From: Octopus vulgaris
Taxonomy: Eukaryota
Assembly (NCBI GenBank): GCA_951406725.2
Contig: OX597819.1
Coordinates: 84,196,001-84,260,000 of the forward strand
Direction: 5' to 3'
Length of the DNA: 64,000 bases
Made by a program: the position numbers and the translations under genes. The first letter of the stretch is position 1; each line of letters begins with the position of its first letter. The notes under the pieces were generated by a model. That model was not told the origin of the DNA. It saw nothing but the letters and a program-made list of their open reading frames with translations, and searched no databases. Below are positions 30,001 through 59,708 of this stretch, one piece after another.

Positions 30001-33000
30001 TTTAGTTATTAGAGAAGCATTACTATAGTCAAAAGAGGTTTTCAAGTGTGGAAAAGCACTATAGGTGAATGGTATGACTGTAGGAAGGAAAATACTGTAG
30101 TTGGAGGAAACAGATGTTACTGGAAAAATACTATAGTTAATAACTGATGCATTCATCATAGGGGAAATGCTATAATTAAATAGTATTGTTGTTATAGAAT
30201 AAATACTCTGGTTAACTGGTATAGTTATTAAAGGAAATATACTATGATTTAACATATTTGTTATAGGAATAACAGTGTGATTAACTGATGCAGTTGTTCC
30301 AGAAACAACACTATGTATAAATGATGTAAATCTTTCAAGGATTGTATATGGGCTATAAGTAAGTGTCAGTTTTTCAATAAATAATCTTTCTTTGGAGGAA
30401 AATAGTTTATCAGATGGTATTATTGTTGTAAGAACAGGGGTAAATGTAGATAAAACTAAAGTCTCATTAGTTAAATACATCTCTTCTGAAATACTTTGTT
30501 TTAGGTGAAACATTGAATACAAGCTCTTCATTTCTGATGTAATTTCTCTACTTATTTCAGTGCTTTTTGTAGAATATTTACTTAAAATATCATCTTTTAA
30601 ACTTAGCTTTAACAAAGGAAATTTTGATGTGTGTGTCACATTTTCTATTTCAAATGTTTTTGTAATATTTCCAAATACTGAGCTAGAAGTACTAGTAATT
30701 GATAGCACTTTAGTGCTGTCTTCAACTGGATATAGTATTACATTTATTGAATCACTCTCCTTTGAAATGATGCTTGTCTTTTCTTTAACATATATTGGGG
30801 ATTTAGTTGTTGTTGCCAATATATCAAAATGTTCTACCTCTTCCTTAGTACTCCACATCAGTAATGTACTTTTCATGGTAGGTTCAAATGGTCCTTTTAT
30901 GGAATGAAGTTTTATACCCTCTGTAATTTCAGGTTTTATTTTCAAAGTAATTATTGAATCTGTCACTTGACTGAATTGCAAAATTACACTTCCTGTGACT
31001 TGAGATTCAATATAAGCTATAGGAATGATACTTGTCTTTTCCTGAATTATTATCAAAGATGTTTCATCTTTTGCAGTAGCATCTAACTTGATCATTACCA
31101 ATTTCCCTGTTACATTTTTAAAACCAGTGTATATATAAGTTTCTTCAATCAAAAATGGTGTTTCACTTTTTATCCCTTGAGTGGAATGTTCTTGTTTAAC
31201 AGATATTAATTCAGTCTGTGACATCTCAGAAAAAGTAGATGGTTCAGAACTTCTGAGAAATGTTTTCTTTGAATAAGAACGTAAAGTTTTATCTGTGTCT
31301 GTTGGAAATTTGCTCCCACTTTCATTGAAATAATCTGGTCTAAATGTTACAAATAAATGAAGTGATAGTTTTGGTAAAATCAGTAGAGAGTCAATGCTTG
31401 TTTCATTGTAATCAAATGTTTCTTGTCTTTTCTGTTCAGCTGTAGAAAAACGTATGTTAATACTTCTTTGAGTAAATGAAATTATTTGGCTTTTGTCTGA
31501 TATAAATTCACTTTTTGATGTTCTGAAAGCATACCTGCTCAGAGGTAAAGAAGCATTTATTTTATATTTACTCTCTAAAATGGGTGTATGGGTTATTGTT
31601 GTTGTTTGATAAAATGTGGTAGTAAACAACTTTAAATTATCCATTATCCAATAGAAAGTTTTATTTCTCAGTAACTTTGTTTCATTTGTTTCATCTTCAA
31701 AGTATGGAGTAGATGTAGGAAATATATAAACATATTTCAATATAGTTGTAAAAGTTGCTACATAAAAAGATGATGATAATTCAGGTAGAATTGAAACAAT
31801 ATATACTTTCATTTCATCTTCTGGATATGTTGTAGCATTTGATAGAGGTATAATTTTACTTTCAATAGACTGTATAGTTAATCCATCATCGAAATATAAT
31901 GAAGTTCCATTAATACTCCAGGTAATATATCTTGTTTTATTCTCTAAGGAAGAGGCTATTGTATTTGTTTTAGTAATGTAAGAGTCATATAAAGGAGTTA
32001 TTACTGATATTTTGGAATGTAAATGTAGTAATGTCTTCATTCTACTACTAGAAATAACCATGTCTGAGATTCTTGAGGAAACACTACCAAGTTCATCCAT
32101 TTGTTGCTTTTCTTGACTAGGAATAGTGTTTGTTGTTAATTTATATTCCACTTGTGACAAGTCTGTAACTTCTTTAAATGTGAAAGATGGATGTATTAGT
32201 TTTTCTTTGTCTGTATAAGTCATCACTAAATTGGATGATATAACAATTATTTTAGATAATGGCATGGCATCTGTCCAGTTAGTATAATTATATATTACCA
32301 TGGAGTATCCCTTATCAATATATGAATGACCATCTAAATCCTTGAGCAGTAATGAGGTTATACCATAGCCTTTTTCTGGATAAATAGTAAAATATTTTGT
32401 TTCAAATGCAGTTGATGTTTTCATAGTTATTGCTTCAAGTCTTGCCGAAGCAAATGATGACTTCAATTGAAATGTTTCTAAATCTTTGCTGAAAGAGCTG
32501 GATCTTGCTTCTGAATGACGTTTTTCTTCTTCTGTTGATTGTAGTACAGGCAATGTTATTCTTTCCTTTAAGAAAATATAATTAGTGAATGTATAATTTT
32601 GTTGAAGTGTTGGTATTACCTGAAACTGGCCCTTTACAGTTCTTGACTTTTTTCTTTCCAAACTAAAACTATCAGTAACAATATCTGATGCTAAAGCTGT
32701 GAAAACTGCTGATTTTGTTGCAGGTAAAGAGGAAATCTGAAATTTTGTTGCTAAAGTTCTTTTTAATTCATCTGTCAGAATTGTTACTGAATGGTTAGTG
32801 TAGCAAGAAGCTGATAGTGAAGTTTTATTTAATTCAGACGGGATTGTGGATATATAAGTGATAGAGAATTTTGTTGTTGAATGTTCAGTCTCTTGCTTAC
32901 TAGATGTTTGGAAAGTCTGTAATTTAGAAAACATTGGTTTGAAATAAGATGTCATAAAATGTTTACTTGTTGGTAATTTTAATGTTGGTGTCACAGATAA

Positions 33001-36000
33001 TATCTCAATTTTCTTTCTTTTAAAAGGTGTTGAGAAAATCCCAGATACATAAAATTCTGTTTCTTGTTTGGTTCCATTTTTAACTTCCCTATATTTTTCT
33101 GGAATTTCTTTTTCTTTTTGAGTAGAAGGGAACTTTGTTACATACAGAAGTTTACTTGTATAAAATTCTGTTTCTTTTTTGGCAACTGTCAAATTTGACG
33201 TCATTTGCTCTTGCAATACAGTCAGATGTGTCTTTTGTTTTGGAGATACAAAACCCAATTTTCTACTTGGTGTTATTAAGATGTCTTTTTGCTGTTTAAA
33301 ATCAAAAGAATCAGTCATTTTAATGGTAGCTAGTTTGAAAGTTGTATTTGTCTTCCTATGGCTATATGTTGTTAAGGTGAATTTATCTGTTATATCATTC
33401 TGAATTAAGGTTTCCAATTTATCTGTATACATTATGTCACTTGCTGACACAACTAAATAATCCATTTCAGCAGTTGATATACTTGTAAATCCTTTCCACA
33501 TAACTGTTCTTAGCTTTTCAATATCAGAGTCATAAATTAGGACAGAAATATAAGAACTGGATTCAGCTTTAGCAGTTGTTAACATATTTGTTTGATCATC
33601 ATAAAAGTAGTCAGGAACTATAGTTTGCTCCAAACTCAAGACGAAAGTTGTTTCAAATGAAACTGGACCCGTTGCTAAGAACTTTATGATTGCTTTTAAA
33701 CTGCCTGCTGTTATTTTATGAAGTGTTACCTCTTTTGTAAAGATCGTTACATTTGTTGTATTTGGTATTACAGACATAGTGTCATATGATATTATAGTGG
33801 CACTACTATCGCTGGTTACAATTGTTGCATCTAGAGTTTCAGTGGTTGCTCTTTCTATTTGTGTAGGTTGTGAAGTTGTAGTTGTTGAATTTAGTATTTC
33901 TGTACCTATGTGTAATGTAAGATTTGTTGTATGTAAGGCTATACTCATTCTATACTGTGTTGAACTGATTGTGTTTTGAACTGTGATATTTGTACTTGAA
34001 GTCACAGTTGTGTTGTACAGTGTTTTACTCTCTGGATATGCAATGATCGTTTGTAATGTCGTTCTGTTAAATAATGTTACCTTGCTTAGGTGTAATATTA
34101 CAGAGACTGGCTGATGTAGTGCTGGAGTAGTATCTAGTATTGTAGTTGACTTGTATAGAGATGCATCTAGCATTTTAACCATAGTATATGGAGTAACATT
34201 CAGTATATAAAGTGTATCAGTAGGAGAAGTAGTATGCTGAGGTATAGTCAATGCATCCAATACATCATCAGTAGAATGTGGAGAAGATAGTATGTACATT
34301 ACTACAGTAGTAGTATGTAGCGCTGATCTCTGTACTTTGGTAACAGTATATGTATCAGCAGTTAATATATGTAGCATATTATCAGTTGTAGTTTGTTGAG
34401 GTGCAGTCTGCACATATGATGTTGCAGTAATTAAATGTACAGATACACTTGAACTGCTTTTATATGCAGTAATTTCAAGTACTTTTATGAATCTGGAAAA
34501 TGTAGTCACAGAATATGTTGGTACAGTATCTCTATAATGAAGTGAAGGTTTTGTATCTAAGGACACCAAAGGAGTAAATAGTGTTGTAGTTGTGTTTAGT
34601 GATGTAACAATACTAGTATCTAGTACTACATTTGTTGCCCACAGTGCTGTGCTGATGTCTTTTGAAATTCTACTCATCATATATCGAACTGCAGCAACTG
34701 AATGCACTGTTTCGTTTTTACTATGTCCAGTTGAAGTTATTGTAGCTAATGAACAAAGTGGGACTGTACTCTCTGTCTGGATTTCTAATGTAGTTGTCTG
34801 CAATGTTGCAGTTATGTTTTGTGGTCTTGAAATCATTGTATAGATTGTGGAATTAATTGAATGCAATGTTGTAAAAGTTTTGTGCAATATTACATCAGGT
34901 TTCTGTAAGACTGCAGTAATTTTATCTGTCGTAGAGGTATAGTATGCCGTATCTACTCCTACATGGTGTATATATTGAGTTATAGATGTAGATGTAGCAT
35001 ATTGACTTGGAGATGTTTTACGTGATGCAACACTTGCTTTATGTAGAGATGCAATTGTGCCATTCGGGGATAAGGTTATATCAGTTGTGTTATGTGGTGT
35101 AACAGTTGTGATAAATAACATTACAGTTGTGTCATGTAATGTTACAGTTGTTTTAAGTGGAGTTACAGTTATGTTAAATAGTGTTACAGTTGTGTTACGT
35201 GGTGCTACAGTTGTGTTATATGGTGTTACAGTTGTGTTGTGTGGTGTTGAAGTTGTTTTAAGTGATGTTACAGTTATGCTAAGTGGAGTTACAGTTATAT
35301 TCAGTGGTGTTACAGTTATGAAATGTGGTGTTACAGTTGTGTTAAATGGTATTACAGGTATGCTATGTGGTGTTATAGTTATGTTATGTGGTTTTACAGT
35401 TGTGTTATGTGATGTTACAGTTGTGTTAAATAGCGTTATTGTTATGTAATGTGGTATAACAGTTATATTATGTGTCACAGTTGTGTTATGTGGTGTTACA
35501 GTTGTATTATGTGGTGTTACAGTTATATTATCTGGTGTTACAGTTGTGTTAAGTGATGTTACAGTCGTGTTAAGTGGTGTTATAGCCTTGTAATCTGGTG
35601 TAACAGTTGTGTTATGTGATACTATAGTTATGTTATGTGTTGTTGCTGTGTCATGTGGTATAACAGTTGTATTAAGTGGTGTTACAGTTATTTTATGTGC
35701 TGTCACAGTTATGGTATATGGTGCTACGGTTGTGTTAAGTGGTGTTACAGTTATGTTATGCAATATTAAAATTGTCTTCTCAATTATTTCAGTTCTGATA
35801 TACGGAGTTATTGTGCTATTTATACTCTCAGTGGCTGTATATGCTGTTTCATTGAGAATATGCGATAATATAGAATCATGTTTTTGTAGTATAGCTGTAG
35901 TATATGTTGAGTCAGTTGTAGAATTTGATAAAATACTGATTCCAAGTGGCAATATAGATGTATCATTAGGAATTGTAGCAGTTGTATATGGAATTGGAGT

Positions 36001-39000
36001 GGGAGTCTGTAGAATTGTGGTGGTTGAGTGGAAAATCTCAACGGTAGTATAAGATGTGGTGGTTGTATATGATTCTATATGGATAATGTTTGCTGCAGTA
36101 AAAGTAATATATGGATTCACTGTAGTGTGCGGCAGTTTAGTAGTTGTATATGATACTGTTGTGATAGTATGTGGTACTGTAATAACACGCTGTTCTTTAA
36201 AATACTCCTCTTCTGTTATTTTAGATGTAAATTGTAAAACAGAGGGTGTAAATTCTGTTGTCAATGTATACAGTTCTGTTTTACTTTGAAGGAAACTTCT
36301 ATAAGATTGTCTTCTTGATACAATTGCTTGATGTAAAGTAGATATTAACCCTTTTCTTGTATATTTACAAGTTTCTCTTGTAGTGAATGGCATAAAAGGA
36401 TCATGAAACCCAGAATCTTTCTGTGTCTGATTCTGGAAGGAAGAAGTATTTTCTTTTGCAATGACAAGTGTTGGTATAAGTAGAGTATTTATTAATAAGG
36501 AATCAAACATGTTTTGTTCTGTATTTAAATGCAGAATATCCTTTATATCAATTTGTTCCATGGTTTGGTTTGGCGTTGTTGTCTTATCTGTTACCTTTGT
36601 ATAGGTATCCTTCACTGTCTCTGATTTAAGTTTAAATGGATAACTCAGTCCATCCTTTTTATGTTCCTTTTGAGATGTTTTTTTAAAACTTCTTGTGGAA
36701 GTGATGACCGGTATTGAAACAGTGTACTTTTTTCTGATACTAACTGTTTGCAAGCTCAGAAAGATAGTTTCTATTAATGGTAATTTATCTACATGGATTC
36801 TTGTGGTGGTGGTTCTGTGGGTAACAGGTATCACTTTTTTTTCAAAAGTAGAGAATAAAAATTTTTCTTGTGATTTAAAATGATCAGTTGATATTTCAGG
36901 TGATTCAGAATGAAATAAGGAGGTTTCTAATCTTTCAGGGAATGAACTTAGCGTTATTTCTGTTTTGTTTTTAAGAATGATTCTACTTTCTAAAATTGGT
37001 GTCATACCAAGTACCATCAGATTACTATAGTTTTTATCTTCCATATGAGGAACAATAAAATATGTTGTCGTTACTGTTTCTGTATCATTTTTCTTTGAAA
37101 TTACTTCAAGGCTTGTTTTATATGATACTCCAGGTGAATCTTTTAATGTATGAAAAGTAGAAATTAATTTGGTCTTTGCTTTTAAATACAACATTGATAT
37201 TTCACTGCTTTCTGTAGATGAAGCCATTTTATCAGCTTCAGTAGTTTTCATTCTGATATCAGTTTTTATTTGGGATCTGGCTATAATTATTTTGGATATC
37301 TCTGTTTCCTTAAAATATTTAACCACATTATCAGTAGTATCAATAATGTCAATTGATGCTTCTGCTGGTTTTTGCAATGTTTGTATTGTATCATTGCTTC
37401 CATAAATGCCAATGTCAGATACATTTGTAATGTTGATACCAAATACCATATCAGTTGTTAATGGTATATGAAGTATATGAACTATACCCCATGTATTCTC
37501 AGTTGTTTCTGTAATATCTTTAGAGTATGGAATTATAGTTACTTTATCAAAAATAGCTGCTGTGTAACTACCCAACATATAAATGCTTTGGTTAAAAAGC
37601 AAAGTAGCAAAAGATATGTTAAAGGATATATTTGGTATTGTTACATCTTTGCTCTTAGGATATATGACTTCATATAAGTCACAACATGTACTCTTTATAG
37701 CAACAAGACTAAGCTGAGGCTCAGTTTTAGGTGTGGCAAATTTAGTTTGAAATCTGTCAATTATTACCTCATGTGTACTTATTATTTGGTCGTAACTGTC
37801 AACATCTTGTCTATAAAAGTATATTAATGGACTTCCAGTAATTTGTTTCTTAAATGACAAGATTTCTGTATATATTTTCCTCAAAATAATACTTGGTGTT
37901 ATAATTTCAGTAATTGTATCTTGTAGCATAGTGTCTACGATTTTACTCAATTGAGAATCATTCTTGTAACTTGTATAGAAGACAGGCTTCTTAGTTAATT
38001 TTTCAAGAGGAAAAATTGTGCCAGATCTTAATCCATGTATTATTATTTCAGCATTTTCACTTGATGTGTCACTAGTATTAGCAGTAATATTTGATATAGC
38101 TAACCTAACTGTTGCCTGAACATCTTTCCACAATAGGAAATGGCTACTTTTCACAGTTGAATAGCTGTCATCTAATTTAAATGGACTTACAGTATATCCC
38201 ACAAAATATTTCCTTTTAATGCTGGTAGTGGTAACTATATCAAAATGATATGACGAAAATATCAGAGTAGAGAATTTTTTACTAAAGACAGTAGAGTAAA
38301 ATCCAGTTTGTCTTGCAGATTGCTTTGGCATGATCTTGGATGATTCTTCAATGATCTTTTTCTTACTGGTTACATTTGAATTCTGAATAGACTGTTGATG
38401 AATGTCATCATAAAAATTAGTAATAAGCATGCTTACTCTCTTGCTTAAATGTGGTATAACATCTAGCTTTGTTAACACACTACTTGAAATATTATGTGTC
38501 ATATACATATAACCATGAGTAATTGGTTTACTGATTACTTCAGTCGTATACACATCAGCATCTATGTACAGGCTTCCAGCAGGTGCATCTATGAGGATTC
38601 TGCTATCAGAAAGTGTTGTTTGCATTTCAGAAATATCTTTGCTACTCTTTTCAGTTTCTTCATCATGAGATTTCATCAAAATAGGTAACTTTATTGTGGT
38701 TGTCAAAAATGATTCTTCTTGTTGAATATAATATTTTGAAATAGAAATATTTTTAATGATAAATACTGGTGTAGTTGTTGTTGTTGTTGTTATATATAAT
38801 CCAGACATTTTTTCTTGGGTGTATGTTATATTAAAGTAGTCAGTTTTAGAATAAGGTAAGCTTGTAAAATACCTAATTCCAAATTGCCATATATATTCTA
38901 TGCCGGTAACATTATCTTCATAAGCTCTGGATGTAATTATTTCTTTTAAGAAAGCTATATTTGAAACACTTATTGCTGGTTTCTCAGAAATAGTTTCTTC

Positions 39001-42000
39001 TGAAATTTGATTAATGAATGCCAGAGTGGTTATTATGTCAAGCATATCTATATCTTTCTTAGTTGTTGATTTTATTATATCTTTGGCAACAGCAAATGTT
39101 TCCAAAGAAAACTCTAAATCAGTTGTAGTACTTTCAGGGATGGTTAAATTTGTTTGATTAGTATATATCATATCTGCTGGAATGACAGTTCTTAGAGTTG
39201 GCTCCAGCTCACTAAATTTCTTGCTTATCTTTTTTGCTCTTTTTGTAATTGTCATATCACCAGTAGTGTTTTTGATAATCATTGTGAAACTAAGTTCAGT
39301 ACTGATTACTTGTGCTTTAGGTTTAAAACTAATGTGTTTTGAAAAATATTTCGTATCTGACTCATTTAGATATATTAAAGGTTTCATTTTACTTGTTACC
39401 AAAATATTTTCAGTAGATATTGCAACAACAAGACTAGGCACATAGGTACTTATATCTTCTTGCAAATCAGGGTACTGAGAAGAAATACTGAATTCCTTTG
39501 TAGGAAAGGTTATGGTTTCAATCTTAACAAAAAAAGTTGTGCTTAAATCCTTTGATAGCATTACAGATTTATTCAAACTATCTATTGGACCAGCTGAAGT
39601 AATTTTTGTATGAAGTGATTTTTTCAATATATGGGAAACTGTTTTCCTTGTAGTGTTTTTCAAAATATGTCTGACATCATATATATTTGTAAAGAAAGTT
39701 TCTGTTATCATTTCAGGGTATGTAGATAGAGTGATGAATGTTATTTGAGTTACTTCCTCTGAAATAACTTTAGATAATGTATATATTTTCATAGATATTG
39801 ATGTAAAGATTACAGGGGTAGATTTCTGCTCTATGGCTTCTTTCAAATATATTAATTTACGTTTATCTAATTCAACTGGTGTAGCAGTATACTTTATTAT
39901 TTTACTATCACTTTGTTCATCAATGGTTGTTCTGGAGGTCCTGGTAAAATATTCGGTAGTGTTTGAAGTAGTGTTAATAAAAATTAATGTCTTCATATCT
40001 GTTGAATACAATCCAATTACAATAGCAGGTAATTGTACTGAATCTGTGAGCATGGATGTAAGATTTCCCTGCAAAGTTGATATGAAATCTGCAAATCCTT
40101 TTGCTGAATATGTAGTATGATATTTGCTTTGCAAACCTTTATTTTGAAGTAATTTCTGTTCATGCATTAATGCTTTAGAACTTGAAGCAACATCTAGTAA
40201 CATGCTTTCTGTTGATGTGAAAAAAATTATTGATGTAATAAAGAAAGACTCAGTTGCTGATTTGGCATCACTTACAAAAGCTACCTCGGGTCTATAGAAT
40301 GTGGTTGCTAATGTTGATATTTCAAATTGAGTAACAATGCCTGTAACTTGCAATACCGTTATTATGTCAGTTACATTTTGAATTGTTGTATAACTTGGTA
40401 TTTCTTCTAAAGCTAGTTTATGTTCTAAAGAATGTCTTATGATGCTTCTAGGTGTTGATTCAGTTAAAATGTCACTCTTTATGCTACTTTCATTGACTAC
40501 TCTAGTCTTTATTTTGCTTGTGAATGTAAATATTTCAGAATCTTTTTGGTATATTGAAACATTTTTTTCATGCGTTTCATAATCAACTTCTATTTCTGCT
40601 ACTACAGTAGTTTGCTCTGAGCCTGTGCTAATGCTTATTTTATCAAGTTCTGATAAAAATCCTTGTCTTCCTTTAGGAGAAAGTATAGTTACAATCAATT
40701 TAGTAATATTTGATAAACTTGGGACTTGAGAAAGCCTTTTCAGTTTTGCAAAAGCATCATCTTTGCTATAATCTAAAGTGACCGCTAAAGGTAAAGTTGA
40801 CATGAAAATATGAGGTGAAATAGTGTGGTCTCTTTTATCTTTAAATGCATCAAGCATTATAGTAAAACTACTTAAAGGTAATTTACTTGTTTTAATTTTA
40901 GTGGATAATAATTGTTGAGGCCTTTTTGAAATTGAAGTGTCCTCCAAATTAAGTCTATATGTGTAAATTTCCTCAGTAGAAGTTTTTGCTCTTGAGCCAG
41001 ATGGAAGTAAGGCAAAATAATCCTTATGGCTGAAAGGCACAGTAGCTGAAATTGACTCCAATTGAACCTGCGTAATAAAATCTGACTTTTGAGTGAATTT
41101 TATTTCTCTTTGAAAACTTTCTCTAAACAAAGAAGATTCTTGAAATGCTTGGCTTGTTACCAAAATGTAACCAATTACTTCAGAAGAGGTTTGAAGTAAT
41201 GATTCTGAATAAATTTTGTCTAAAATATAAAATGTTTTCCCTGTTTTATGGAAGCTAGTTATTTCCTTGTAAGTATAGTGTGTGACTTTCTCAGAAGTAT
41301 CATCTAAAGACCAAATTACATAATCAGTACTTGTTCTCTTTACCACTTTGGTTTCAGGAAATGTCAGGAATTGTACATCTGTTGTCAAAATACTTCTTTC
41401 ATTAATGTCAGCAAAAGTTTCAGATACATTTCTACTTGTTTCATACTTGATTGTTAAATTTGGATATTTTGGTTCTACACTAAATATTGGTTTGATTAAT
41501 AAATAGTTGCTTGTACTTTCAGTAGTAATAGCACTTGGTTTTGAAGAAACTAATGTACTGAAAGGAAGTTTACTAATTTGACTAGCATTAGTTTCAGTAG
41601 TTGAACCTATTACTTTTATTTTAGAGGTTTGACTAAACACAAAAGTAGAATCAGTACTTTTAATCAATTGGGCAAATGAAAGAGAAACACTAGTTTGATT
41701 AGGATATCTAGATAACAAAGAAGTTATATTATAAAGTAAGTGTGGTAAGAACGAAACTTCACTGCTTGACTCTTTAAAATATTGAACTGTTTTAAATGGT
41801 AAAGTATCGGAGGAATCTGTTGTAAAGTATTGGCTTGTTGAAAAATCATAATAATCTAATATAAATATTGTATTTACTTTATGCCTGTGATCTTTAGATA
41901 TTAAACCATAATCAAACTTTTGAAAGGATTGTGTAACCGTGTGATGTGATACTGATTTGATTTTTAACTCACTTTCTTCAATTGAAGAAAATACTTTTGA

Positions 42001-45000
42001 TGAAACTGTAGTTTGAGTTGTAATAAAAGTAATCATACTGTCAAAATAGGTGTTAGAATAAGCTATAAATGAAATCAATAATTGAGTTGTTTTTTTAGTT
42101 TTTGGTAATTTGTAAATTAGTTTTAGTGTAGAAACTTCTAACAATTTATACCATTCAGTTTCAGTATCATCTGTAATAGACTGTTCTTCTTTGATAAAGT
42201 AACTTCTGGTTACTCTGAATAAATCACTGGTGACTGGTTTGTCAGTTTGGTTTTTCAGTTTTGAAACCTCTCCCAATTTCCAAGCTGATGTGGTGGTAAA
42301 ATGCATCCAGGCTGGCATTACATATTTTCCATAACTATATGGTTTTGATGAAATAGAGTCAAGATTTTCTTCTAGTACTTGCTTGGTTGTAACATCAAAT
42401 GAAAGTTGATGTGTCTGAAGTAAATGCCTAGTTTCATGATAGATTGTTTTTTCCTCAAGTATTGTTTGAATTGGGTATATTGTTACTAAAATATCTTTAT
42501 CCATTTTTTGAGAAGGTGTTTCAACTAGTAGGCTGGTTCTTTCTGATATCCCCTGGGATAGATCTGTTGTGAACAAGATATCTTCAGATGTTTCAATGAA
42601 CGATGATCTCATTTGTATGCTAATGCCTTCTGATACCTGTTGGAATGAAGTTGCGGTCAACAGAATATCTTCAGGCGTTTCAAGAATTTGTGGTTTAGTG
42701 AAGAGCTTGGTGCTTTCTGATAGATTTTGAGATGATGATACAGCAAACAGAAATCCTTTAGATGTTTCTTGAGGAGAAAACACCCTTGGTTGACTAACTA
42801 CAGATATTTCTTGCATGACTGTTACCAATAATGTTCTATTTTCTAATAACTTTTGAAATGATGGTGTATATAGTAGATTATTATCAACTATCTCAGGTTT
42901 TGAAAATAAATATTTTATGTGTGAAATATTGTTTGTCTTATTTATTAACCTGTCATCAAAACTAAATCCTGATAAAACAGTAGTTACTTCTTTACCAACT
43001 GGAAACACAAAATGCAGACTTTTTGAAGTAGATTTTTCTTCTAATTTGTACATATATGCAGATATAAAAGCTTTTCCTAATTTCTGTTCATTTGTCCAGT
43101 GAGAAAATGCTGTTATAGAAGCATTCATGAAGTCAGTTGTCATTGTGATTTGGTGCAAAGATGTTATAGTTGAAGGTTGGAATGATCTGTAATAAAAGCT
43201 AGAATCAGTTATGGGTGTAATGGAAAGTTGACTAGGATTAGTCAGAAAAGTTTGTCTTGATATGATCAATTTAATAGGTGTTGAAGATGAAATTTTTAAA
43301 ACCTTTTCATCACTTGGGTCTATAATTGTTTCAATAAATTCCATAGTTGTAGATGTTGTTTCTTTGTCAGATGTAAAGTTTAATTTTGGAAGTCTACTAT
43401 CAGTTCTATTACTTAGCTGAATTGACAGCATATTTGTTGACATGATGTCTCCCACATAGAAGAATGGAATCAATTTAACATTACTGAAGTAGGATACTAT
43501 ATCATAGGATTCACTGTAAGTTGGTTTCACACTTGTTAATGTTTTTTCTGTTTTTGAGATGGGTTGATTATAAAATGTAACGTCAGTGGTCGATTGGATT
43601 ATTGGCAAACTTGAGGTCTTTTCTCTTTGCTTTAATTTCAGTTCAAATGTAACTATATATGAGGCAGTAGCAGTGACGGGAGATAGAGTAATGATTGTTG
43701 GGAGAGGAGTATTGGATAGAGAGGTAATAGGAAATAACTTGAGAGGAGTAAGAGAAACTGAAAATCCATGAAGAGAAGTCTGACTTACTTTTGTAGTATA
43801 AAGATATAAATTTAACCCATACATTTCAGAGAAACTTGCAGTTCTTTGCCATTGTCTTGTTACTTCCCTTAATGTCCATATTTTCATTGGAGTCTGCATT
43901 TCTAACACAGAAGCCATTTGTTCAGAGCTAGTTCTATTTGTAACAGTTGTTACTGACACATATGGTATTCTCCTCATTCTTTTTGTTACTTGCTTAAAAT
44001 AAGTTTTTGGTGAAACTAATGAAGAAAAGTTTAGTTTTGGCATAACAGTCATAGAAATGCCTTTCTGCCAGGAATCTATTGATGTATTTAGAATTGACAT
44101 CTTTGAAGGCACTAAACTAACCAAGTCTGTCATAGATGTTCGATTTGAGAAAAGATGTTTAAGATCTATCTTAATTTTAGTTTTTATAGGCTGCAGGAGA
44201 AATGTAGAGTTAAAAAGCTTGGTATCATAATCAATGTAAGGTGTGAGTGTTTTCTGTGTTGGAATAAAAGGTAAAGTTGTAATCTGAATTTTAACATCTG
44301 ATAAGTTTAGTTGTGGACTGGAATCATACTCCATCTTGGGTGTGCTCAAAAGAGTTAGTTTTGATGATATATTTGTAAAGGGTTGGAAGTACTGTAAATG
44401 AAAGGTTGTTTTGTCTACCTTATAGATGTAAGATTGCTCCCATCTATATTTTGACACAAATGATTTTTCCAAGACATATTGACTACTAAGTGGTTTCATC
44501 ACAGAGGTCACCGAAATAAGAGAAATGTCGGGGGTGATATGCATTGTTATGCTAAAAATCACTCTTTCAGTTGTGATTGATTTATCAGCTAAGTCCAAGG
44601 TAGTTTTTAACGATTTCTTTTGGGCAACAATTGTACTTTCTGTTACGGATTTCTTTGTAATAGATTCTAAAGTAAAAGATTCTGAAATATGAAAAGATAA
44701 ACTTGTATTCTGAACAAAATCTAGAGATTTTCTTATGAACCTTTCATTAGCAACAGTTGGGACTAGAATTAGTGTTTCATTGCTTGTATTTGACATTTGA
44801 TAAATATGTCTTGGTCTATGTGACTGAATCATTTTAGGTGACCCTGTGTTGTATAGTAATACATTCCACATGAATTTGGTGGGTAATTCAGTTATATTTA
44901 CTGAGTCACCAATTAAATATGTTGTTTTGATTTCTGTATTGTGCTTTAACAAAAATTCAGGTATAGCTTTAGTTAATAAATGAGTCGTGTTACTGACTAT

Positions 45001-48000
45001 TAGCATTTTTGATGTTTCTGTAGTCTCTGTTACAATTTCTGTCAATGGTGTTCTGAATATTTGTGAGTCCAGGATTACTTTAGATGTTGATGGCCATACA
45101 AATTCATTTATCTGAGTGTTTATCAAAGTCTTTCTGATATCTATACCTAAATATGTTGTGATGGTCTGTATAGACTTGTTTAAGTAAACTAATGGAGACT
45201 TAGTTTGACTCATACTATCGTAACTTGATGTTTCAAATGTTACTTGGATAATTGACAATGATGGTTCAGCAACTTTTTTGCTCTGAGATGGAACCACACT
45301 TTTAGATATTGTTGTGATTATTAGAATCTTTGGTGTTGTAATATCCCCTTCATGGTAGAAAGGCAAAAATTTAGGCATAAATTTACTTTCTACTGTTGTT
45401 AATTCAGTCCTATAAACATCAATGTCAGCCAAAGCTTTCGTTTTGATGGTTTTAAACATTACCACTGATGGCTTGGTTACATGTAGCATATTGCTAACAT
45501 TTCCTGTACTATAGGTATTTTCTTCCCCTTTTATTATAACAGTACTTGACTCATTCATTTTTATCAATGGTTTTGGTAAAATTTGCTTCTGTTCTACTGT
45601 TGATACAGTTATACTCTCTGTAATGTAAATCAATGATATTTCAGTTTTACTGATAGTCTTTCTATCTAAGGATTTTCTTTCAACTTCTATTCTAGATTTG
45701 GTTGCTTTTTTAACCTTACTTTCCATTTCTGAGGTTAACTGTGGTGCTAAAGAACTCTCTGGAGCCCTACTAAACAAGAACATACTTCCAGTTGTTTCCT
45801 TTAGTGATTCCTGGGACTTAGATTTCATTGGTATTTCTCGAGATGTAGTTTTAGTAAGTGGGATTCTTGTTGTTATTGCTTCATCACTGGTTTGCTTAAC
45901 CGGTTCACTTAATTTCCAGGTTTGTGTAAAGTGATCATGTGTTGTTATTTGTATTTTTCCTTCTGTCATGAATTTAATGGGTACTTTAGGTGTTAAAGAT
46001 TGCTGTATCCATGCAACCCAGTAATTTTCAGTTTGGTCATATTGCAGTTCATTTATAGTCTTATTATTAAACCAAATATCTACAGTTATAAATGGCTGTT
46101 TTGCTAGAGTGCTATTTTCTTTGAAAGGAAGCAAAACAGCCTCAGATATGTTTTTATTTTCCAAAACCAGTGCTGAAATATTATGGTCACTATCAATGTG
46201 TAATATCTCAAAGCGAATTGTAACTGCCATTTGTGTTTTGGCAGTGCCCTGCAAAACAGCTACATCTAATAATGCTGTATCTATTTTCTCACTCACTTCA
46301 GTTGGTAGTATTCTTGTAGTAATTTCACTAATTTTCTTCTGAATTTCAGACATAGGCAGTTCTGTTCCTTTGCGTTGAGATTTTGTTGTTTCGATTACAT
46401 CAGTATGAAATGTTTCCATTGTCCCTTTCATGTGTATATTTAATTGATTACTAGTACTAAGTTGAAGGAATTGTTTCAAATTACTTTCATTTTTCATTTT
46501 AAACACATCTAGACTTCTATCAAATAACGCACTGGTACTCGTAGCTAATAAGGAATCAAAATATTCTGAAGTACGGAGAACAACAAGAGCCATTTCAGAT
46601 AATTCTGTTGTTGCATCATACATCTGTTGTACTGTAATTGTTAATTCTTCCACATGAATGACTCTGTCTGTAGTTGCAGACAATTTTACTTCAGATGCAG
46701 TGATACTTGTTATATTTGGGAATACTGTACTTGATACATCTACTAATTCAAATGTTGCATTAGTTATCACAGCTTGTTTAATTATGTGCAATAATTTACT
46801 TACCTGTGATATCTTTTGAGCAGTAGTCAACATAGTTGTATTCAGTACATTTAATTGAAACATATTATGTCTAATTTTAGGTATCATCGTTGTGAAAACT
46901 TTACTTTCATTTGAAGCTATGTTAAATAAAAACATTTCAAATGATGTTTGGTATATTGTTTCTGGTGTAGCTAAAAGTGACTGCATGTCATTGCTAGCTG
47001 ATGTAATAATAAAAGACCCCTTTGATGTGCTGTTTGAAACAACAGCTAGAGTAAATAAAGTTGTATGAAGTTTTTCCAATAAATCAAATGTTATTTTATC
47101 TTGGATTGTCTTAGTGTGTTGTGTTGATAAATGAGAAATGTTTGTCCTAATGCTTAAAGTAATTTCACTGCTCATTTTACGACTGGTAGTTCTTGTCATT
47201 GGTTCTTTTGTTGCTATTGGCTTCTTTGTCTTTGCCTCCATGGCTGAACTGCCATTTATTAATATATAAATTGATGAAGCAGGTGTAACTTCTCCTCTTT
47301 CCTTTTTAAAAGAAACACATGTTTCATCTTTTGATGCAGTAGTTTTTGTCATATTTGTAGATCTGGCAAGTGTAGTCAAAGAATATAATATCTTTCTCTT
47401 TGTATATTCTTTTAGTTGATACTGAGATTTGAATACAGAGATTAATGGTGTTTGGGTAACTAGAAGTGGTTGCCATGTCCCAAGTTTAGTTTCAAACAGC
47501 TCAAATAATTTCGATGTTGCAAAATCTCTTATTGGTTTAGATACATTTTGTGGCATTTTTGATTGTCCAGTAAATATTTTACCCAAATCGCTTCTACCAT
47601 GTTTACTAAACTCCAATTCTCTGTAAGTGCTTTCATATGATGGTAGGGTTAAAAGAGAACTGCTTGAAATATTTTCTTTATGTGAAGATATTTTAGGTGT
47701 TATAGTATGAAGAAAAGAAGCATTCTTAATTATAACTCCATGTTCTTTTGTCACATAACCTATAACTTTTAATTGTTTTACTGTGTCATTATCATAAAAA
47801 TCAATAATATCAATAAACCTGCCTGGTGTGCTTGTTTGATATGGATAAAAAGTTTCACTTATATCTCTTTTCTTAAAATACCTTCTTGTTGGTTTTGTAT
47901 GATCCAACATTGCTTTCATTTCACTTCTAATCAAACTCTTTGTAATACCATCAGTTGTTACATCTAGCCATTTAATAGGTTTGGATTGCATTATATCTGT

Positions 48001-51000
48001 AGATGGCTTCACTCTTTGTTGACTTATTAAACTTCTTCTGTATTTATCAAATTTAGTTGAGAAATCATGCATGTATGGTTCAGATTGTAATTCAAATTTT
48101 ATTTTTTGATACAAGGGACTTGACTGTACTTCTGAGAAGGTTTTAGTTTTAAAACTAGTTTCTTGGCTGAGTAGTTTTAAAAATGGAAAATATATTTTAG
48201 ACTGATTTTCAGTATGTAATGTTCTTGGTGTTATTTTATCCTCTTTGTCATATTTTGGCTTATCAGAAGTTTTTTGAAATGCATCAGGTTTCCATAATGT
48301 TTCGGTTGATGTACCTTTTGGTAAAGAAGATGATACTGTATCTTCTACATCTGTTGAAGTTTCTGAAGTTAAGGTTTCACTCATAAATTCACTCAGCACT
48401 GGCGGGCTTGCAAATGGTAAAAACAACAGTGTATTTTCCAATATAAATGTTACATCTGTTGTTCCCTCAAGACCATGCTCTTCATATAATTCTGTTGAGT
48501 CTAATTTGTGTTTCTTTTCAGCTGTTGAAATACTGAATTTAGTTATATTTGATATTTCCAAACTCAAAGAAGAAATTAACTCATTTTGTGGACTGCTTTT
48601 TGAAGGAACAAGCCTGTGCAGATATCTATTCACATCAAATGAGCTGACTGTTGGAACTAACCTCTCAGTAAATCCACTCACATTATCATGTTTACCTATA
48701 AAAAGAACTAAGCCTTCAGAATGTTGACTTACACTTTGTGATGTGTAAGTAGAAAGAATTAATCCTTCACTGTATCTGCTTTTGTTTCCCTGTAATCTTC
48801 CATGGGTGATATCAATGGTATTAAATGTAGTAATATCTATCATTTTAGATTTAATTTTATGTACTCCATCAAATTTTCTTGGCTTTATAGTCTCTATAGT
48901 AACTGATGGCATCCAAAAACTAGATACAAAATCAGTATGAGACACATGTTTTTCCTTTCTTGTAAAAAAGGCTTTTGATAACTGTGTAGTTTCTGGTGTT
49001 TTTCTAAAATATTCTTCAATGGGAGAAATAACAATACTTGTCAAATATCTTTGTTGGGTAGAACTGAAATCTGAGCTCAGATGGTCTGCAGAATGATATC
49101 CTGGAGCCAATAAAGACATCGGTGTTAAGATTTCCATATCTCTGTTAGTTAACTGAGACATCTGCTTAAAATGTTCAGATAACTTTTTTTTATGAAGCAT
49201 TTCATAACCAGACATCTCCAGCATTGAATAAAAAGGATCAGTGGTCTCTGTAGTTGTTACTGATGTTTCAGAAAAAGCAAATATATTTTCTGTAAGAGTG
49301 CTACTAATCATTTCATTTAGTATAGTCAGGGAAGTAACAGTGTCGACTTCTGAAAGTTCTTTTGCTGTTAGCTGAATGATTTCATTCATAGTTGTACCAA
49401 ACAACTTAGTAGGGTTTGTTGACTGAATGGGAATAACTGTTGGCTTGCTTTTATCAATATCTGTTTTAATATTTGTGGAAGAAATTAATAGTGTAGGTGA
49501 CACTGTTGAAAAAAATGTAGGGTATGAAACTACTATATCTAGTAACATTGTCACATTGTATCTCCAAGTTAACTTCCAGCTTTCTCTTTCTGTTGTGAAT
49601 GTTGATAAATCATTTAAAAAATCTTTACCAACTCTAAACATTAAGGTTTTGATAGTTCCTAATTGGAGAGACGTTTCTAATGTTTGTATATCCATTATTC
49701 TCATAACTGTAGCAGTTATTCTTTTATCAGTACCATTATCAGCCAAGATTTGTGTTCTTTTCCACCAAATATCATCTCGTCTAGTTTGTGTTGTAGACTG
49801 CTCAGTTATAAATTTTGAAGTAAAAGTCTTATGCCATGGTAAATATATTGTAATTGTTTTCTGTTTCTGAAAAGTTAATGGTGACTGAAAATAGGTTAGT
49901 GGTTTCATTGCTGTTATATATCCTTGGGGATCTGTCCCAGTCTTTTCGTTTGTAATAACCAATCCATCTCTATCAACTTGTGGAACTGTAACTGCACTCA
50001 TAATAACAGCTGATTTTACAGTTACATCAGTCTGTAGAACACTAATGATCTCCCTAACATCATCAACAGCATCCTTACCAAAAACTGGTTCTTCCTTGTC
50101 TATTTGTGGAATTTTAACAGTTATTTTAGTATTAGTAGATGCATCCTTTTCTGTGACTTTAATTAAAATTGTAGTAATCACTGATTTAGTTGTGTTACTT
50201 GGCAAAACTACAGATGTACCCATAGGAACTGATGTAGATTCTTCAATAACAACTTGTGACACAGTAATAAAATCTCTAAAACTAATTGGTCCATCAGTAT
50301 CAACAGGAGGTACTTTGACAGCATATCTGGGATCAAATGATCTGCCACTAACTACTTCCAAAATAAAGGCAGGACCTCTAGTTGGAAGTGATGTACTTTG
50401 TTGAACTGACCCAGCTATATGTGGAACAGTAACACCATCCTTAGAAATCATTATAACAGGATACCAAACAACAGAAATATATCTGTCTATGGATGATTTA
50501 TCTCTAGTAATGTAAGGAATGGTAACCGTGTCCTTTGTAACATCTGATTCGTCAACATCCACAGCATCTTCCAATTGATCAGTATGCATGCTATAAGAAA
50601 CCTTGGTTACAAATGATTTATACATGTCAATTTCTGCTGGTGTAACACTGTCCTGAACTAAAGTTGATCCACCAAAGTATCTGTGTGAAACAGAACTAGT
50701 TACAACAGCATCACTAACAATATCTGATCCATAAATTTGTGGGTCTGAAACATTATATCTAGCAACAAGAAACTCATTTTTTACTCTTCCTGATTTAGTA
50801 ACAGCCATATCAGTTTGTTTAAAGATAACAGGTATTCTAGTAAGAAATGAAGTGTATACATCTACTTGTGGATACTGGACAGTATGTATAGCAACAGCCA
50901 ATTCATCTTGACCAATCTTCACTACAGCATCTGCAGTAGTACTAAGACCCTCTGTATTGCTTAGTAAAACAGTAACTGCATCCATGATATTAAATGATTT

Positions 51001-54000
51001 CTCAGGTTTTAGAACTGTAACAATGACACTAGTACCAGCAAGATCAATTTGTGGAATAGTAACAAAATCCTTGACTATAATCATCCCATCGATGTTAATT
51101 TGTTGAACAGATGTAATGTTAGGAGCAACAATATATCCATCACTAGTAATTCTTGTTGGAGTAGCTTCATCCATTGGGATATCTAATCTGGAAATATCAA
51201 TATTTGGAACTGTATATGCAGCTTTAGTAATAAATGATCCATTTAAATCAACTTGTACTGTAATAACTTTCTTTGTAGTAATAGATACATAACCATCAAT
51301 TACTAAATCTTTAGTAATAATTGATCCATTTCTCAGTAATTGTGTAGCTGTGACAAAATCTCTAACAACCATAGTATCTGCATCCTTTTCCAACAGTGTA
51401 ACATTAATAGCTAATCTTTCTAAAATTTTGGGAAATGCACTTGCATCAGTAACAAAAACTGAATCGTTACTATCATATTTTAGAGTTGTACCAAAATCTA
51501 AGGCAATCTCTGGTTTTGTTCTGCCTAGTTGTAGATCAATATGTAAATACTTAGTGATACTTGATTCATCAATGCCTTTTGATGAAACTGAAGCAATATC
51601 TCTAGGAAAGCTGTCCTTAAAAATAAAGGAGTCAACTGTATGTATTTGTGGAACTTTGGACACATTACTGGCAACAACAATAGTTTTGGAAACAGTGGAT
51701 CCATTTGTATGTATTTGTTGAGATGTGATCATATCTCTAGTAACAATGTCCTTAGTAAAAATAGAATCGTCTATATGTATTTGCGAATCCGTAACAGTCT
51801 TCCAAGTAACAACACTCACAGGACCAAGAATGCTATCTATGTGTATCTGTGGAACTGTAACAGTCTCCCTAGTATCAACTGTATTCTTATTAGTAGTTGA
51901 CACTTTTATATGTATTTGGGAAATTGTGATGTCCCTCACAACAAATGATTGATCTGAATGTGCTTGTAGAACTTCATCCCTAGTAACAATAAAATCCTCA
52001 GAAAAAATTGATCCACTTGTGTATACTTGTGAAACTACGATGTTATCCCTATCAAAAATAACATAACTAGCAGAAATTGATCCACCTATATGTATTTGGG
52101 GAGCTGTCACAACTTTCTTAGCAACAGCAGTTATATTACTTCTGAACAGTGAGATTGTTGTTGCAAAAGAATAAGAATGTAATTCCTCTAAAAGCACATG
52201 TGTAGTATTTCTTGAAATGGTTGCTTCTGTCACATCTTTATGCTGAATGATAATTTCTGTTAATCTTCCAGTCCTTACATATTTTAATGATCTAGTTGAC
52301 AAATTTCTTGTTTGTAAAGTCAGAGTTCTCTCAAATGTTATTGTTGTAGAACTGAAAAGATCGCTTGATTTTTCTTCGCTAATTCTTGGAATTTTCAAAA
52401 TTTCAAATCCACGTTTATCCTCTACTTCAGTTTTATATTTTAGCATCCTTTGTTGTGTGATAAATTCCAACTCTATTGTATCAACACCAGAGTCAATGTA
52501 ATCTCTGCTTTCAGGAGGCATAATTGATATCCTTTCTTGAAAAGTAGTAAATGGGACTGACATTTCTTTTAGTGAGCCTGTTTCTCTTGCTTCATATATC
52601 TCCTTGTCATAAGTATATGTCAGATCTATAAAAGTAACTTCTTGGTCAAAATACTGTACATTAGATTGGAATAAAATAGGGGTTGCAGTTTCTTCTGGTA
52701 GAGAATAGGCAGGTAATATTGGCTTATGGAAAATTAACTTTCTATCATCATTTAAACTTTTCTTGTCAAATTCTGCTCCTGACAAAGCCAAAATTAAATT
52801 TGGATCATCATGAATAGTTTTGGATTTTAAACCAATTTGTTTTGATTCATCATCACTTTTGGTAATTTGTCTCAATCGTTCTACTGAAGTTGATCTTTCA
52901 TGTTTTGCTGTAATCAAAGACTCATTTAATGGAACCATTGGTTCTGTTATATCTAACCAAGGAACAAAAATCTCATATGTGTTTAAGTTATAGTTCAAGC
53001 CTACATCTTGACCAACATTTCCTCCAAGAACATATTTAATATGAACTGATCCAGGAGAAAGTAATTTTTTGCTTGCGTTGATATATAGTAAATCTGTATC
53101 TCCTGAAGTGAAACCTTTGTCAGAACTCTGTGAGACATCTGATAAAGTAAATTCTTTAATTAACTGTCTTGCTTTTTTTGTCGATATTTTCTCAGTTACT
53201 CTTCTAGAGATCTTGTCCCAAAACTGTTGATCTAGAATGTGCGTTGTGCTCATCAGCAGTGGAATCTTTGGACTGCCTATACTAAGAAATACAGACTGAG
53301 ATGTACTTTTCTCAATAAACCATACAGTTGGTATAAAGTGTGATTTATGTAGCTTCTCTCTGGTAATTGGTGTAGTTATCTGATCAGATAAGAAAGATGG
53401 TGTTAAAAATGTATAAAAATATTTTGGTGTTAGCTGATATTTTACATGTGTTTTTACTTTTTCAAACAATGTATATTGAAGAATTACTTGTGTTGTTATC
53501 ATTATCTGTTCCCCACTAAATAACTTTCTTTTTGTTGACTTTGAAAGCATTTCATATATTTTTACTTTACTACCATCTCTTTGTTCTGTAGTTTGGTTAA
53601 TTTCTGTCATGAATGATAGGCTTTTAAACAAGTCATCAACTGATTTGGTTTGGTCTAAAGCAACTGTTACAAATTTCTCACCTGGTTTTACTAATGTTTC
53701 TAGTGATTTAGACACATTTAGTTTCAATAACTCCCACCAAGTAGGTGTAGCTTGATATGCTTTTGGGGCTTTTGATGTACTCTCAATACTTCTAAATGTC
53801 TGAAGTAGTCCTAATAAATACTTTTTGAATATAAATGATGAATCCATGGTAGTTGTGGAATAGGGCTCCTGCTTTGATAGGGATATTTTCACAGTAGTAT
53901 AATAACTTTTTAAAGAACTCAAATCTTTTGAAGGAATACTTTTACTTTGATTATTTTGATATAATTGAGACTGGATCCTAAGATGCAAATTAGAGAATGT

Positions 54001-57000
54001 TGTTCCTTCAGTATAGGAGATATTAGGAAATAATCTCATACTTTCACCTAATTTAACTAATTTGGTTATCACCAAAGTTGTTTTTTCTGGATACAGAATA
54101 TCCAGACTAAAATTAGATGTAATTTTTGTAGGTATATTATGTGGAATGATTGATAATGTTTTTGATGTAACCATGTAAGATTGTGTTCTAACTGGTGATG
54201 ACTTCTCTGATCTTATGAGTTCCAATTTTTTGCTAGTACTATTTATTTTGGAGATATTAGAAGAACTGAATGGTGAATATTGTATTATATTTTGTGATGT
54301 TTTGTATGATTTTAAGTTGCTAGTTTTCACTTCTTGTCTGTTTGTTGTAAGGACTTCTTTAAATATACCTAATACTCTTTCTGTTGTGTTGTATTTTTCA
54401 GCATAAACAGGTAGTGTTGATCTCACTGAAGGGATCAATTCTGTAGAACTATGCCATTGTTTTTGAACGGTATGTTTCAGTGGAATAGAAAATATTGGGC
54501 GTTTCTGACTTATTGTCACTTGTTTAAAAAGTCTGCTACTTACTGTTCTCCTCAAATTGACAGTAGTCACAGGATTAGATAATATAGTTTTTTTTAATAA
54601 AACAGATAGAGTGTGATGTATTTTGAGCATTTTCAGTGTAGTAGATGAAACAGGTGCTGGAGTAGTAAATATTTTAGTCATAAGCTTTTTACAAGGTTTA
54701 GAAGGGAAATGTTTTTTTAAATATTTCTGTTTTATCTTTTTCCGTAAGGACTTTTTTCTGCTTTTCTGTTTTGGCTGCCCTATACTAGATTGTGATCCCT
54801 TTTTCTTTGCTTTATCGATCAACAAAAGTCTTTTTCTTTTATCTTTCAAGGAATATCTCTTTATATACAACCTCTTCCCCTTTTTTAGCCTATGATAAGG
54901 ACATTTTTGCCTTCCTTGTTTCCTTGAAAATTTTGATTTTGCAACAACAAGCTTCTTACGGGGAGTTTTAGATACATAACCTGGTATACAATGTACAAAA
55001 ACATCTATAGTTTTCCCATCTACTGCAAAGCCTCGGCGTGTTATACATTTGAGAGATACAGAGAGTTTTCTCAGATGTTTTTCTGATTGGTCTGATTTAT
55101 TTCCTGTCATTAATATTTCAATTGTTTTACTAGTTACCATTCCTTGGGAGAGTTTTTCATCCACAGAATGGTTATATTTTACAATAGGCAGACAGTTTAA
55201 AGATATATGAAGAAAGTCTTTATATGAAGGAATATTAAGGTCACTAGTACAGTGAAGATTCACTGGTAAGAGTGAGCCATTAGAAGTAGCACTCAATCCA
55301 GGAACACAGTTTAAGTCTATATCTACTTTATCCCCACTGCTATTGCTGCTATTTATTTTTGGAGTGCAATACAAATAAACAATTATATCATCTGGTTTAG
55401 GAGCAACTTTGCCAGGAGAAGAGCAATTTAGTGTTACGGGTATGTTATTTCCATATTTTATAAAATTGGTCTCATGAATACAAACAAGAGAAATTGCAAT
55501 TGACTGGCTGCCTTCATTTCCACCTTTAACTGCTGTGTTTTGTAAAGATAACTCTATTTTGTTTACTTTATTTGAGCCAAATACTTTAGAAATTCTCTTT
55601 TTAGAATTTATAAATTTCTGTAATTTATTTCTTTTCCATGGAAAATGTATTTTTCGCCTGTGCTTAACTTTCTCATCTTCATAATAATCTCTTTGATCTG
55701 AATTAAATTTATCAAATATTTCAGGTATTTTTTTAAGACTGTCGTCTGATCCCTCCTCTTTTTCTCTTTCTTGTGAGCACCTAGTTTCAAACTCCTCATT
55801 ATCAACTTCATCTTCTAATTTTTGGTTTGAAACTATTCTTTGTTTGGCTAGTTTCTTTGGTGATTGGATTTTAAATATTTTTTTTCGTTTTTTTAAGTAT
55901 GATGAATCATCATTCTTTTTTAAATGCAGCTTTTTTCTGTTTCCAAAACTAATATCTCGTTTGATTCTAGAAGTAAATAATTTGTAATTCCTTACTTGTA
56001 TTATGTTTTTGCCAAATAACTTTATGTTATTTGTATTGTTGAGCATTTGTAACACAGATTTTGTCATAAACAGACTGACACTTGGATTCAGGGTACTTGT
56101 TTCACCAGAATTTAATTGAGTAAAAATTATGGAAGCTGTAGACTTAAAAAATAGAGGATGGTTTTGAATATCAAAATGAAATAAATTAGATGAAAGGATG
56201 TAGGGTAGTTGAGAAACTGCAGTTTTTGGTGCATAAATGCCTTTGTTTTTAAAATTCTTTAAACTGAATTTACTATTTACATCTTTTTTTGTTGAGTAGT
56301 TACTTTGGGCTTGAGAAATTATTCTATATTTCAGGTAATGATTTTTAAAATAGAGAATTATATTTGATTTTAATACATAAATTTTAATTTCAGGGATATA
56401 ATTATGAAGAAGTTCAACAGATTTTTCATCAATGAAGTCTGTATTGCTTTTAGCATGGTTTACTATTAATATCACAGAGGATCCCAGAGAACTAAGATAT
56501 TTGCATACCACTTCATCTTTAAATCTATCATCAAATAGTGTTGAAAAAGTACTGTTTTGGGATTTAATCTTACAAATAATTACAAAATGATTTATTTTAT
56601 CATTAGCCTTTTTAAGTAGAAAGTTGTAATTGTCTAAATAAACATAATTTACAAAACCATTCATCCCCTGAGGTTTAAGGAAGTACCATGCAATTTCTGA
56701 AATATTCATAAAAGTATCTTCCATAATAACCAATATTTTAATATTTACAGCTGAATTTTGCTCCACCAATTTTGTAATGTTATACCTATCACAGATTTCC
56801 AAGTTATTATGTAAAAGAAAACAAAATTTAAAGAACTGGTTTAGAAACATATTACTTAAAACATCTACTCTATCCTTAATTGGCAAAAAATAAAATACCC
56901 TTAACTTTTTACTATTAGAAAAGCTACTAATTTTAGAATTATTATGTAAATGTTTTTGCTTTATGATATCAAGAATAAAATTTGAGCTATTACTATGATA

Positions 57001-59618: not shown

Positions 59619-59621
<3 letters not shown>

Positions 59622-59708
<87 letters not shown>

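Follow-up and report, generated by a model that had tools for sequence, protein, structure and literature searches.

A ten-unit cysteine repeat near the N-terminus of a predicted giant MUC4-like membrane mucin in Octopus vulgaris

The 64,000-nucleotide stretch of the Octopus vulgaris genome analyzed here (hereafter the window; positions 84,196,001 to 84,260,000 of contig OX597819.1 in assembly GCA_951406725.2) is mostly taken up by part of one giant predicted coding exon on the minus strand, and near the start of this exon lies an array of cysteine-bearing units (hereafter the module), which is the main subject of this study. The minus-strand frame opens at window position 57522, runs off the window and stops after a further 47 kb, comprising 34,847 codons, and each of the other five frames contains between 1,149 and 3,458 stops. 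A polypyrimidine tract with AG (57474..57498), the predicted phase 1 acceptor, places the exon start at 57473, and a GTAAG donor lies 20 codons before the stop of the frame. On this basis, the exon is predicted to be 104,433 nucleotides long, with phase 1 at both ends, and to cover window 1..57473 and, as a whole, C6:84253473-84149041 (window position 57473 corresponds to C6:84253473).

The module (amino acids (aa) 656-847, numbered from stop to stop in the frame; 54982..55557, minus strand) is composed of ten in-register units of 19 residues, seven followed by three, eight of which carry a Cys (six and two). Block 1 (55186..55557) contains N662, C681, C700, C719, C739, C758 and C777, and block 2 (54982..55122) contains G807, which is weak, C826 and C845. 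The Cys codons extend from 55482-55480 through 54990-54988, and the successive Cys are 19, 19, 20, 19, 19, 49 and 19 aa apart. The first-pass annotation, made from the letters of the DNA and giving the lowest base of each codon, had described eight motifs of hydrophobic and variable residues ending in Cys at these places and with this spacing, and our recount, shuffles and random placements agreed with it. The motif phi-x-phi-x-[LVI]-x-C (phi being I, L, V, F, M, Y, A or W), a definition made after the data had been seen, was matched by 8 of the 63 Cys in the 34,847-aa frame, all within the module. When aa 660-860 were shuffled 100,000 times, never more than 4 matches appeared, compared with 8 observed, and when the 63 Cys were placed at random 20,000 times, 8 in 165 aa was never reached (maximum 7). 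In a leave-one-out repeat score, in which each unit was compared with the other seven and the Cys column was omitted, all units were above the 99.4th percentile of the open reading frame (ORF). N662 (NKIELSLQ-N), exactly 19 residues before C681, was the top non-Cys position in aa 600-900 and scored like the true units; G807, exactly 19 residues before C826, reached the 98th percentile and was weaker than N662.

Alternation within each unit brings positions -6, -4 and -2 and the Cys to the same side of a strand and polar residues to the other side, and G, N, D, S and P abound in the loops between the strands. DG, NG, YG and SG were found near the middle of four inter-Cys loops (DG is central in 826-845 and YG in 681-700), Asn and His predominate at position -1, and, as noted post hoc, four of the eight units have Gly at -9 and four have Pro at +2. 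The charge of the module is nearly neutral (18 K/R, 17 D/E). Six N-glycosylation sequons were present in aa 600-900, five of them in loops or immediately after a Cys. At the DNA level, pairwise identity between units averaged 41% (maximum 50%), compared with 30% for in-frame controls, and Tandem Repeats Finder (TRF) reported no array for the module over 54500-56000, just two unrelated 19-bp rows. Thus, the repeat is old and visible at the protein level alone, and the earlier remark that no DNA-level repeat could be seen was correct. The module is single copy, recurring neither elsewhere in the frame nor, in a phmmer-type search, in the genome. It had also been called the main Cys cluster of a Cys-poor protein, which is true within the giant exon; for the spliced C-terminal 963 aa outside the window, which have 36 Cys, it does not hold. 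We also observed two small groups of four Cys each in the part of the stalk beyond the window (aa 22531-22561 and 23018-23044), without the phi-x-phi-x-L-x-C motif.

The module is flanked by several other features, all on the minus strand. A hydrophobic stretch (aa 21-40; 57403..57462), a candidate signal-peptide core according to hydropathy, contains the second most hydrophobic 19-mer of the frame. It is followed by an S/T-poor (13%) N-terminal region without a family match (aa 41-518; 55969..57402), which is a candidate pro-region. Within this region, aa 135-440 (window 56203-57120) form an S/T-poor, single-copy segment with no family match, in which short hydrophobic strands (KIKVILVP, KLRVFYFLP, NIKILVIMED, NHFVIICK, SSVILIVNH and EIKIYVLK) lie about 50 aa apart; this pattern suggests an alpha/beta repeat domain. 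RIKR (aa 519-522; 55957..55968) follows the furin-type consensus and is therefore a candidate cleavage site; the frame of 34,847 aa contains only one other R-x-K/R-R site. The charged linker between this site and the module (aa 523-655; 55558..55956) is basic at aa 523-565 (15 K/R, 3 D/E), acidic at aa 566-620 and basic again at aa 621-655 (13 K/R, 0 D/E). Downstream of the module, a polybasic tract (aa 851-950; 54673..54972) contains 42 K/R and 2 D/E in 100 aa.

The remainder of the exon (1..54672 in the window, continuing for 47 kb to the GT donor at C6:84149041/40) is an S/T-rich stalk with 28% S+T and a net acidic composition (2,757 K/R, 3,798 D/E). For the giant exon as a whole, S+T accounts for 28% and P+T+S for 32% of residues, and TRF assigned 21% of it to tandem repeats, in arrays of 21/42-, 30-, 42-, 45- and 84-nucleotide (nt) period. 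Most of the exon is non-repetitive S/T-rich sequence, with 721 N-glycosylation sequons. Pfam matches in the stalk to Extensin_1 (below the cut-off) and to Herpes_TK_C and CS (no single stretch passing) were dismissed as artefacts of the repeats. Just upstream of the exon start, at 57498, is an in-frame ATG, a possible start that sits in the strong acceptor tract. Among 63 long ORFs in the 100 kb upstream, inspected by eye only, none could be assigned as the first exon. In the DNA upstream of the exon, intronic or intergenic, an inverted duplication of about 0.9 kb (window 58990-60990) was also seen by eye; it surrounds a long TA tract at about 59900-60000.

By mapping an Argonauta protein, we located 16 small exons with AG/GT edges downstream of the giant exon and outside the window (C6:84143086-84104878). 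In order, they encode NIDO, an AMOP-position segment, VWD with GDPH, three EGF-like units, a transmembrane (TM) helix and a tail. The 17 modelled exons join in frame to 35,767 codons with one terminal stop (about 4.0 MDa), the splicing of this model being based on splice signals and on gene models of other species, and 796 of the C-terminal 963 aa (83%) are identical to Argonauta GAB1609470.1. When 17 downstream ORFs were compared with Pfam, four NIDO/VWD matches and one EGF match were obtained, of which only the NIDO ones passed the cut-off (PF06119; E 6e-12 and 4e-6 on two exons, and 1e-25 on the orthologues). VWD (PF00094) was under the cut-off on single exons and over it on the spliced orthologues, and GDPH is present in the exon sequence. 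The three EGF-like Cys patterns were recognized by eye, the Pfam EGF match on one exon (E 0.002) being below the cut-off. The TM exon was 67% and the tail exons were 73-83% identical to Argonauta. The Cys-rich AMOP-position exon (142 codons) lies between NIDO and VWD and is not matched by PF03782, which Pfam does find at three other loci in the genome. BLASTP of this exon against one AMOP paralogue was not significant, and a profile of five paralogue pieces ranked it 2/501 against shuffles. It retrieved an Octopus bimaculoides 'mucin-4-like' protein (97%) and an Argonauta hians 'mucin-like protein' (76%).

The likely orthologues are XP_014785347.1 and XP_052824421.1 (Octopus bimaculoides) and GAB1598474.1 and GAB1609470.1 (Argonauta hians). 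These four models (1,586-1,739 aa) start within the last 700-1,100 aa of the exon and share the same junction into NIDO. In both Argonauta proteins GDSH replaces GDPH, and self-cleavage may therefore differ among octopods. On the basis of these data, the gene is very probably MUC4-like, and its predicted product of about 35,800 aa would be a membrane mucin rather than one of the gel-forming type. It is also fairly likely that the module is translated within the full chain. No RNA run was listed among those containing the stretch, and a 191-nt contig of depth 3 inside the module, from a run guessed to be RNA, was possibly derived from DNA and was not counted. In the passages considered here, a mucin-4-like protein was described in Octopus vulgaris skin mucus (PMC11431876); this protein cannot be tied to the present gene because the genome has other candidates.

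We then consider whether the module belongs to any known family. It had no match in Pfam, NCBIfam or PDB sequences, and Pfam recognized no family in aa 10-1174, so that no VWD, C8 or TIL match was obtained there. A phmmer search with the module over 1.84 billion representatives, the only search that covered homologue lengths of 108-345 aa, yielded no homologues, and a word-index search yielded none among 693 candidates (proteins of 346-2,000 aa) and none among 329 (3,300-10,500 aa). In the ESM Atlas, the module had no usable match and a low recognition score (1194), and the N-terminal region had one match at 0.75. A profile built from four two-unit rows reached at best E 0.09 against PDB sequences, with an unrelated enzyme. 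The module thus deserves the description 'unrecognised' that it had been given, and no confident match to a known domain emerged from the sequence and profile searches. Among the papers listed in our literature searches, no published description of a giant octopus mucin, a giant exon or a cephalopod largest exon was found, most subscription journals being outside the searched set.

The occurrence of the module in close relatives and paralogues was also analyzed. The stretch was present in 6 of the 24 sequencing runs listed, and three of these, together with one guessed RNA run, were compared. The three runs were about 97.5% identical to the stretch (about 2.5% different). Long contigs contained in-frame indels of 3 nt (54942, 56145) and 1-nt indels upstream of the frame (57525, 57624), and one contig covered the whole 2.9 kb with seven gap letters (3+3+1); four further indel rows were short side matches. 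A second NIDO-linked giant mucin gene was found on the plus strand at C17:51382426-51468253. Its coding repeat is Thr-rich (PTTTTE-type) and about 86 kb long; one frame stays open for 12,930 codons, and the reading frame switches several times, possibly through assembly errors. A scan for motif pairs in the 30-40 kb upstream of four other NIDO/AMOP loci, and in 30 kb at each of two further loci, gave no accepted match, the C10, C16 and C4 loci being covered just as short stretches around their matches. One paralogue match was discarded because it read an S/T repeat in an alternate frame. As a separate observation, a 467-codon S/T-rich frame at C6:99409768-99411168 lies upstream of a weak NIDO match and is possibly a third, small MUC4-like gene.

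Taken as a whole, the data give in our judgement about an even chance that the module caps the outer tip of the predicted membrane mucin as a compact beta-repeat, locked by disulfides within the chain and flanked by polybasic tracts. The giant exon would be spliced whole onto the NIDO to TM exons, and the chain would enter the secretory pathway via the hydrophobic aa 21-40. Each unit would form one amphipathic strand, its phi, phi, L/V and C side chains pointing toward a shared core, with G/N/D/P turns between strands. Asn or Gly would take the place of Cys while the register is kept; this swap without a shift suggests that the period is set by the strand and not by the thiol. Four intrachain disulfides (from 6+2 Cys) would lock the cap, and as both Cys blocks are even, no partner chain is needed. 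Neighbouring Cys pairs may close hairpins, or the Cys may form a solenoid ladder. A furin-type cut at RIKR522 would release about 480 aa and make the basic-cap-basic segment the mature N-terminus, and the cap may then stand micrometres from the cell on an O-glycosylated stalk, as the farthest part of a type I membrane mucin. Such a small, rigid, protease-resistant and positively flanked tip could bind anionic glycans, neighbouring mucins or microbial surfaces non-covalently, and anchoring and shedding would occur via the GDPH/TM end, as in MUC4. In favour of this reading are the motif statistics and the register, the long open frame, the in-frame joining of the 17 modelled exons, the junction into NIDO shared with the four named proteins, their NIDO and VWD matches above the Pfam cut-offs, and the restriction of in-frame indels on the long contigs to 3 nt.

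It should be noted that several results weigh against this reading. Two single-sequence AlphaFold2 models of the module had a predicted local distance difference test score (pLDDT) of 30 and 35 and were unusable; their strands coincide with the motifs, to which we gave no weight. A Foldseek search with the pLDDT-35 model returned no match at E <= 0.001, which is uninformative at that model quality. The previously proposed beta-rich disulfide module is plausible from the strict alternation, with three hydrophobic residues and the Cys on one strand face, and the structure models lend it no support. In addition, the module is in none of the four public orthologue models, which include just the 3' end of the exon, and the symmetric exon phase makes exon skipping possible, so that the main mRNA may lack the module. 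Because no distant module orthologue was found, conservation rests on very close relatives, and the codon counts rest on 40 listed places of the 96 that differ. Among these listed changes, 36 frame codons were affected, 15 silently and 21 with replacement (p 0.054, about 28% silent being expected). The 12 changes in the module comprised 9 replacing and 3 silent ones, as expected without selection. In favour of the reading, two listed changes fell on the core (L775 and C777), both synonymous, and none of the nine replacements was at a core position, although this sparing has p about 0.2. In one run (13 of 14 module differences listed), at least seven of the eight Cys were unchanged. Among the listed changes in these very close relatives, loss of Cys conservation was thus not observed, a comparison of little power. 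Finally, the first 2,697 codons of the C17 giant mucin are free of Cys, and 110 kb at this locus (C17:51.36-51.47 Mb) contained no motif pair. Since this paralogue is without the module, the module is particular to this gene rather than to giant mucins as a kind, and proteins of this kind do not require it.

A rather unlikely alternative is decay, in which an ancient tandem repeat is under little present constraint and now serves as a loosely structured spacer between basic tracts, with incidental Cys, or is rarely translated. The nine replacing against three silent changes, the single copy in the genome, the low Atlas score and the absence from the paralogous giant mucin would all fit such a history. 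On the other hand, the motif and its exact register persist despite unit DNA similarity down to 41%, which points to past selection on the protein; all eight motif-type Cys of the 63 are within the module, and no listed difference alters a Cys or a core residue.

The first-pass annotation had proposed that the module may polymerise the giant chain, as vWD assemblies do in gel-forming mucins. On this view, interchain disulfides would link the chains, and the tethered or GDPH-shed mucin would form a covalent network like that of the D3 assemblies. The gene architecture, with a TM exon and a tail, does not support this, and the even Cys count in both blocks, with every Cys on the hydrophobic strand face, leaves it improbable, as does the lack of a VWD, C8 or TIL match in the N-terminal 1,165 aa. 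In favour of linking, no other Cys cluster of this kind occurs in the exon, and the distal position of the module, downstream of a furin-type site, is reminiscent of the propeptide arrangement in VWF/MUC2; moreover, the repeated strands could pair edge to edge across chains, and with GDPH present a shed form is possible.

We consider it just as improbable that a known fold is hidden here, that is, a very divergent all-beta member (a beta-helix or solenoid with an Asn/Cys ladder, a beta-hairpin repeat or a beta-sandwich) that profiles have missed. Divergence in this gene is high, as the AMOP-position segment likewise escapes Pfam; Asn at a Cys position and Asn/His at -1 resemble solenoid ladders, and the DG, NG, YG and SG of four loops resemble hairpin turns. 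Yet neither Pfam, NCBIfam nor PDB sequences (single or profile, best E 0.09) nor Atlas features gave a match, and leucine-rich repeats, with their LxLxxN/C spacing, differ from the module. Still less probable is that the whole exon is translated and its furin-exposed tip is an undescribed Cys-ladder beta fold that cross-links the chains of a 4-MDa membrane mucin.

The giant exon is the greater surprise, and the module is a well-defined orphan. The MUC4-like gene type is known, and the public models that we found cover <5% of the gene. If transcribed whole, a single 104-kb exon, six times the largest of titin, would yield a titin-sized surface glycoprotein, which bears on the upper exon size that the spliceosome can define and on what coats the skin or gut surfaces of octopus. 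The module may be a new beta-repeat fold, and as a small, expressible piece it bears on whether membrane mucins can be cross-linked at the tip. If cross-linking were true, a mucin tethered in the MUC4 manner would in addition form a covalent gel, by means that evolved independently of the VWF D assemblies.

The gel-forming mucins MUC2 and MUC5B and VWF have D assemblies and a C-terminal cystine knot. Like them, the octopus protein has a Cys-containing region before its long S/T-rich chain, and a furin-type site precedes that region. In contrast, its N-terminus is without a VWD-C8-TIL assembly, its Cys are far sparser (8 in 165 aa) and it has a TM helix instead of the C-terminal cystine knot. 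The earlier analogy with gel-forming mucins is not supported: the NIDO, VWD (GDPH), EGF-like units, TM helix and tail at the end of the predicted chain are of the MUC4 membrane type.

In the passages considered, a single large S/T-rich exon of human MUC4 precedes NIDO, AMOP, VWD (with GDPH), three EGF-like units, TM and tail, and the forms MUC4/X and MUC4/Y skip exon 2 (PMC10754145). The octopus gene agrees with this in the large exon, in the order of the downstream parts, with a segment at the AMOP position, and in a large-exon phase that permits skipping. It differs in size (about 4 MDa against 550-930 kDa for MUC4), in an AMOP-position segment that misses Pfam and in an exon that is less P/T/S-rich and less repetitive than a classical variable number tandem repeat; moreover, the MUC4 passages of that source make no mention of an N-terminal Cys-repeat module, polybasic tracts or a pro-region (PMC10754145). 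Coral mucin4-like skeletal matrix proteins, as described in part of one paper, combine NIDO-AMOP-VWD-EGF with N-terminal TSP1 domains (PMC4890752). As invertebrate proteins whose N-terminus carries an additional module confined to their lineage, they offer a precedent for a lineage-specific tip, whereas TSP1 is a known domain and the octopus module matches nothing. Finally, according to the passages on titin, its largest exon is 17,106 bp and all of its exons joined give 38,138 aa (PMC12198301). The predicted octopus chain of about 35,800 aa is close to this length, with the difference that a single exon of 104,433 nt, which is six times the size of titin's largest, would supply 97% of it.
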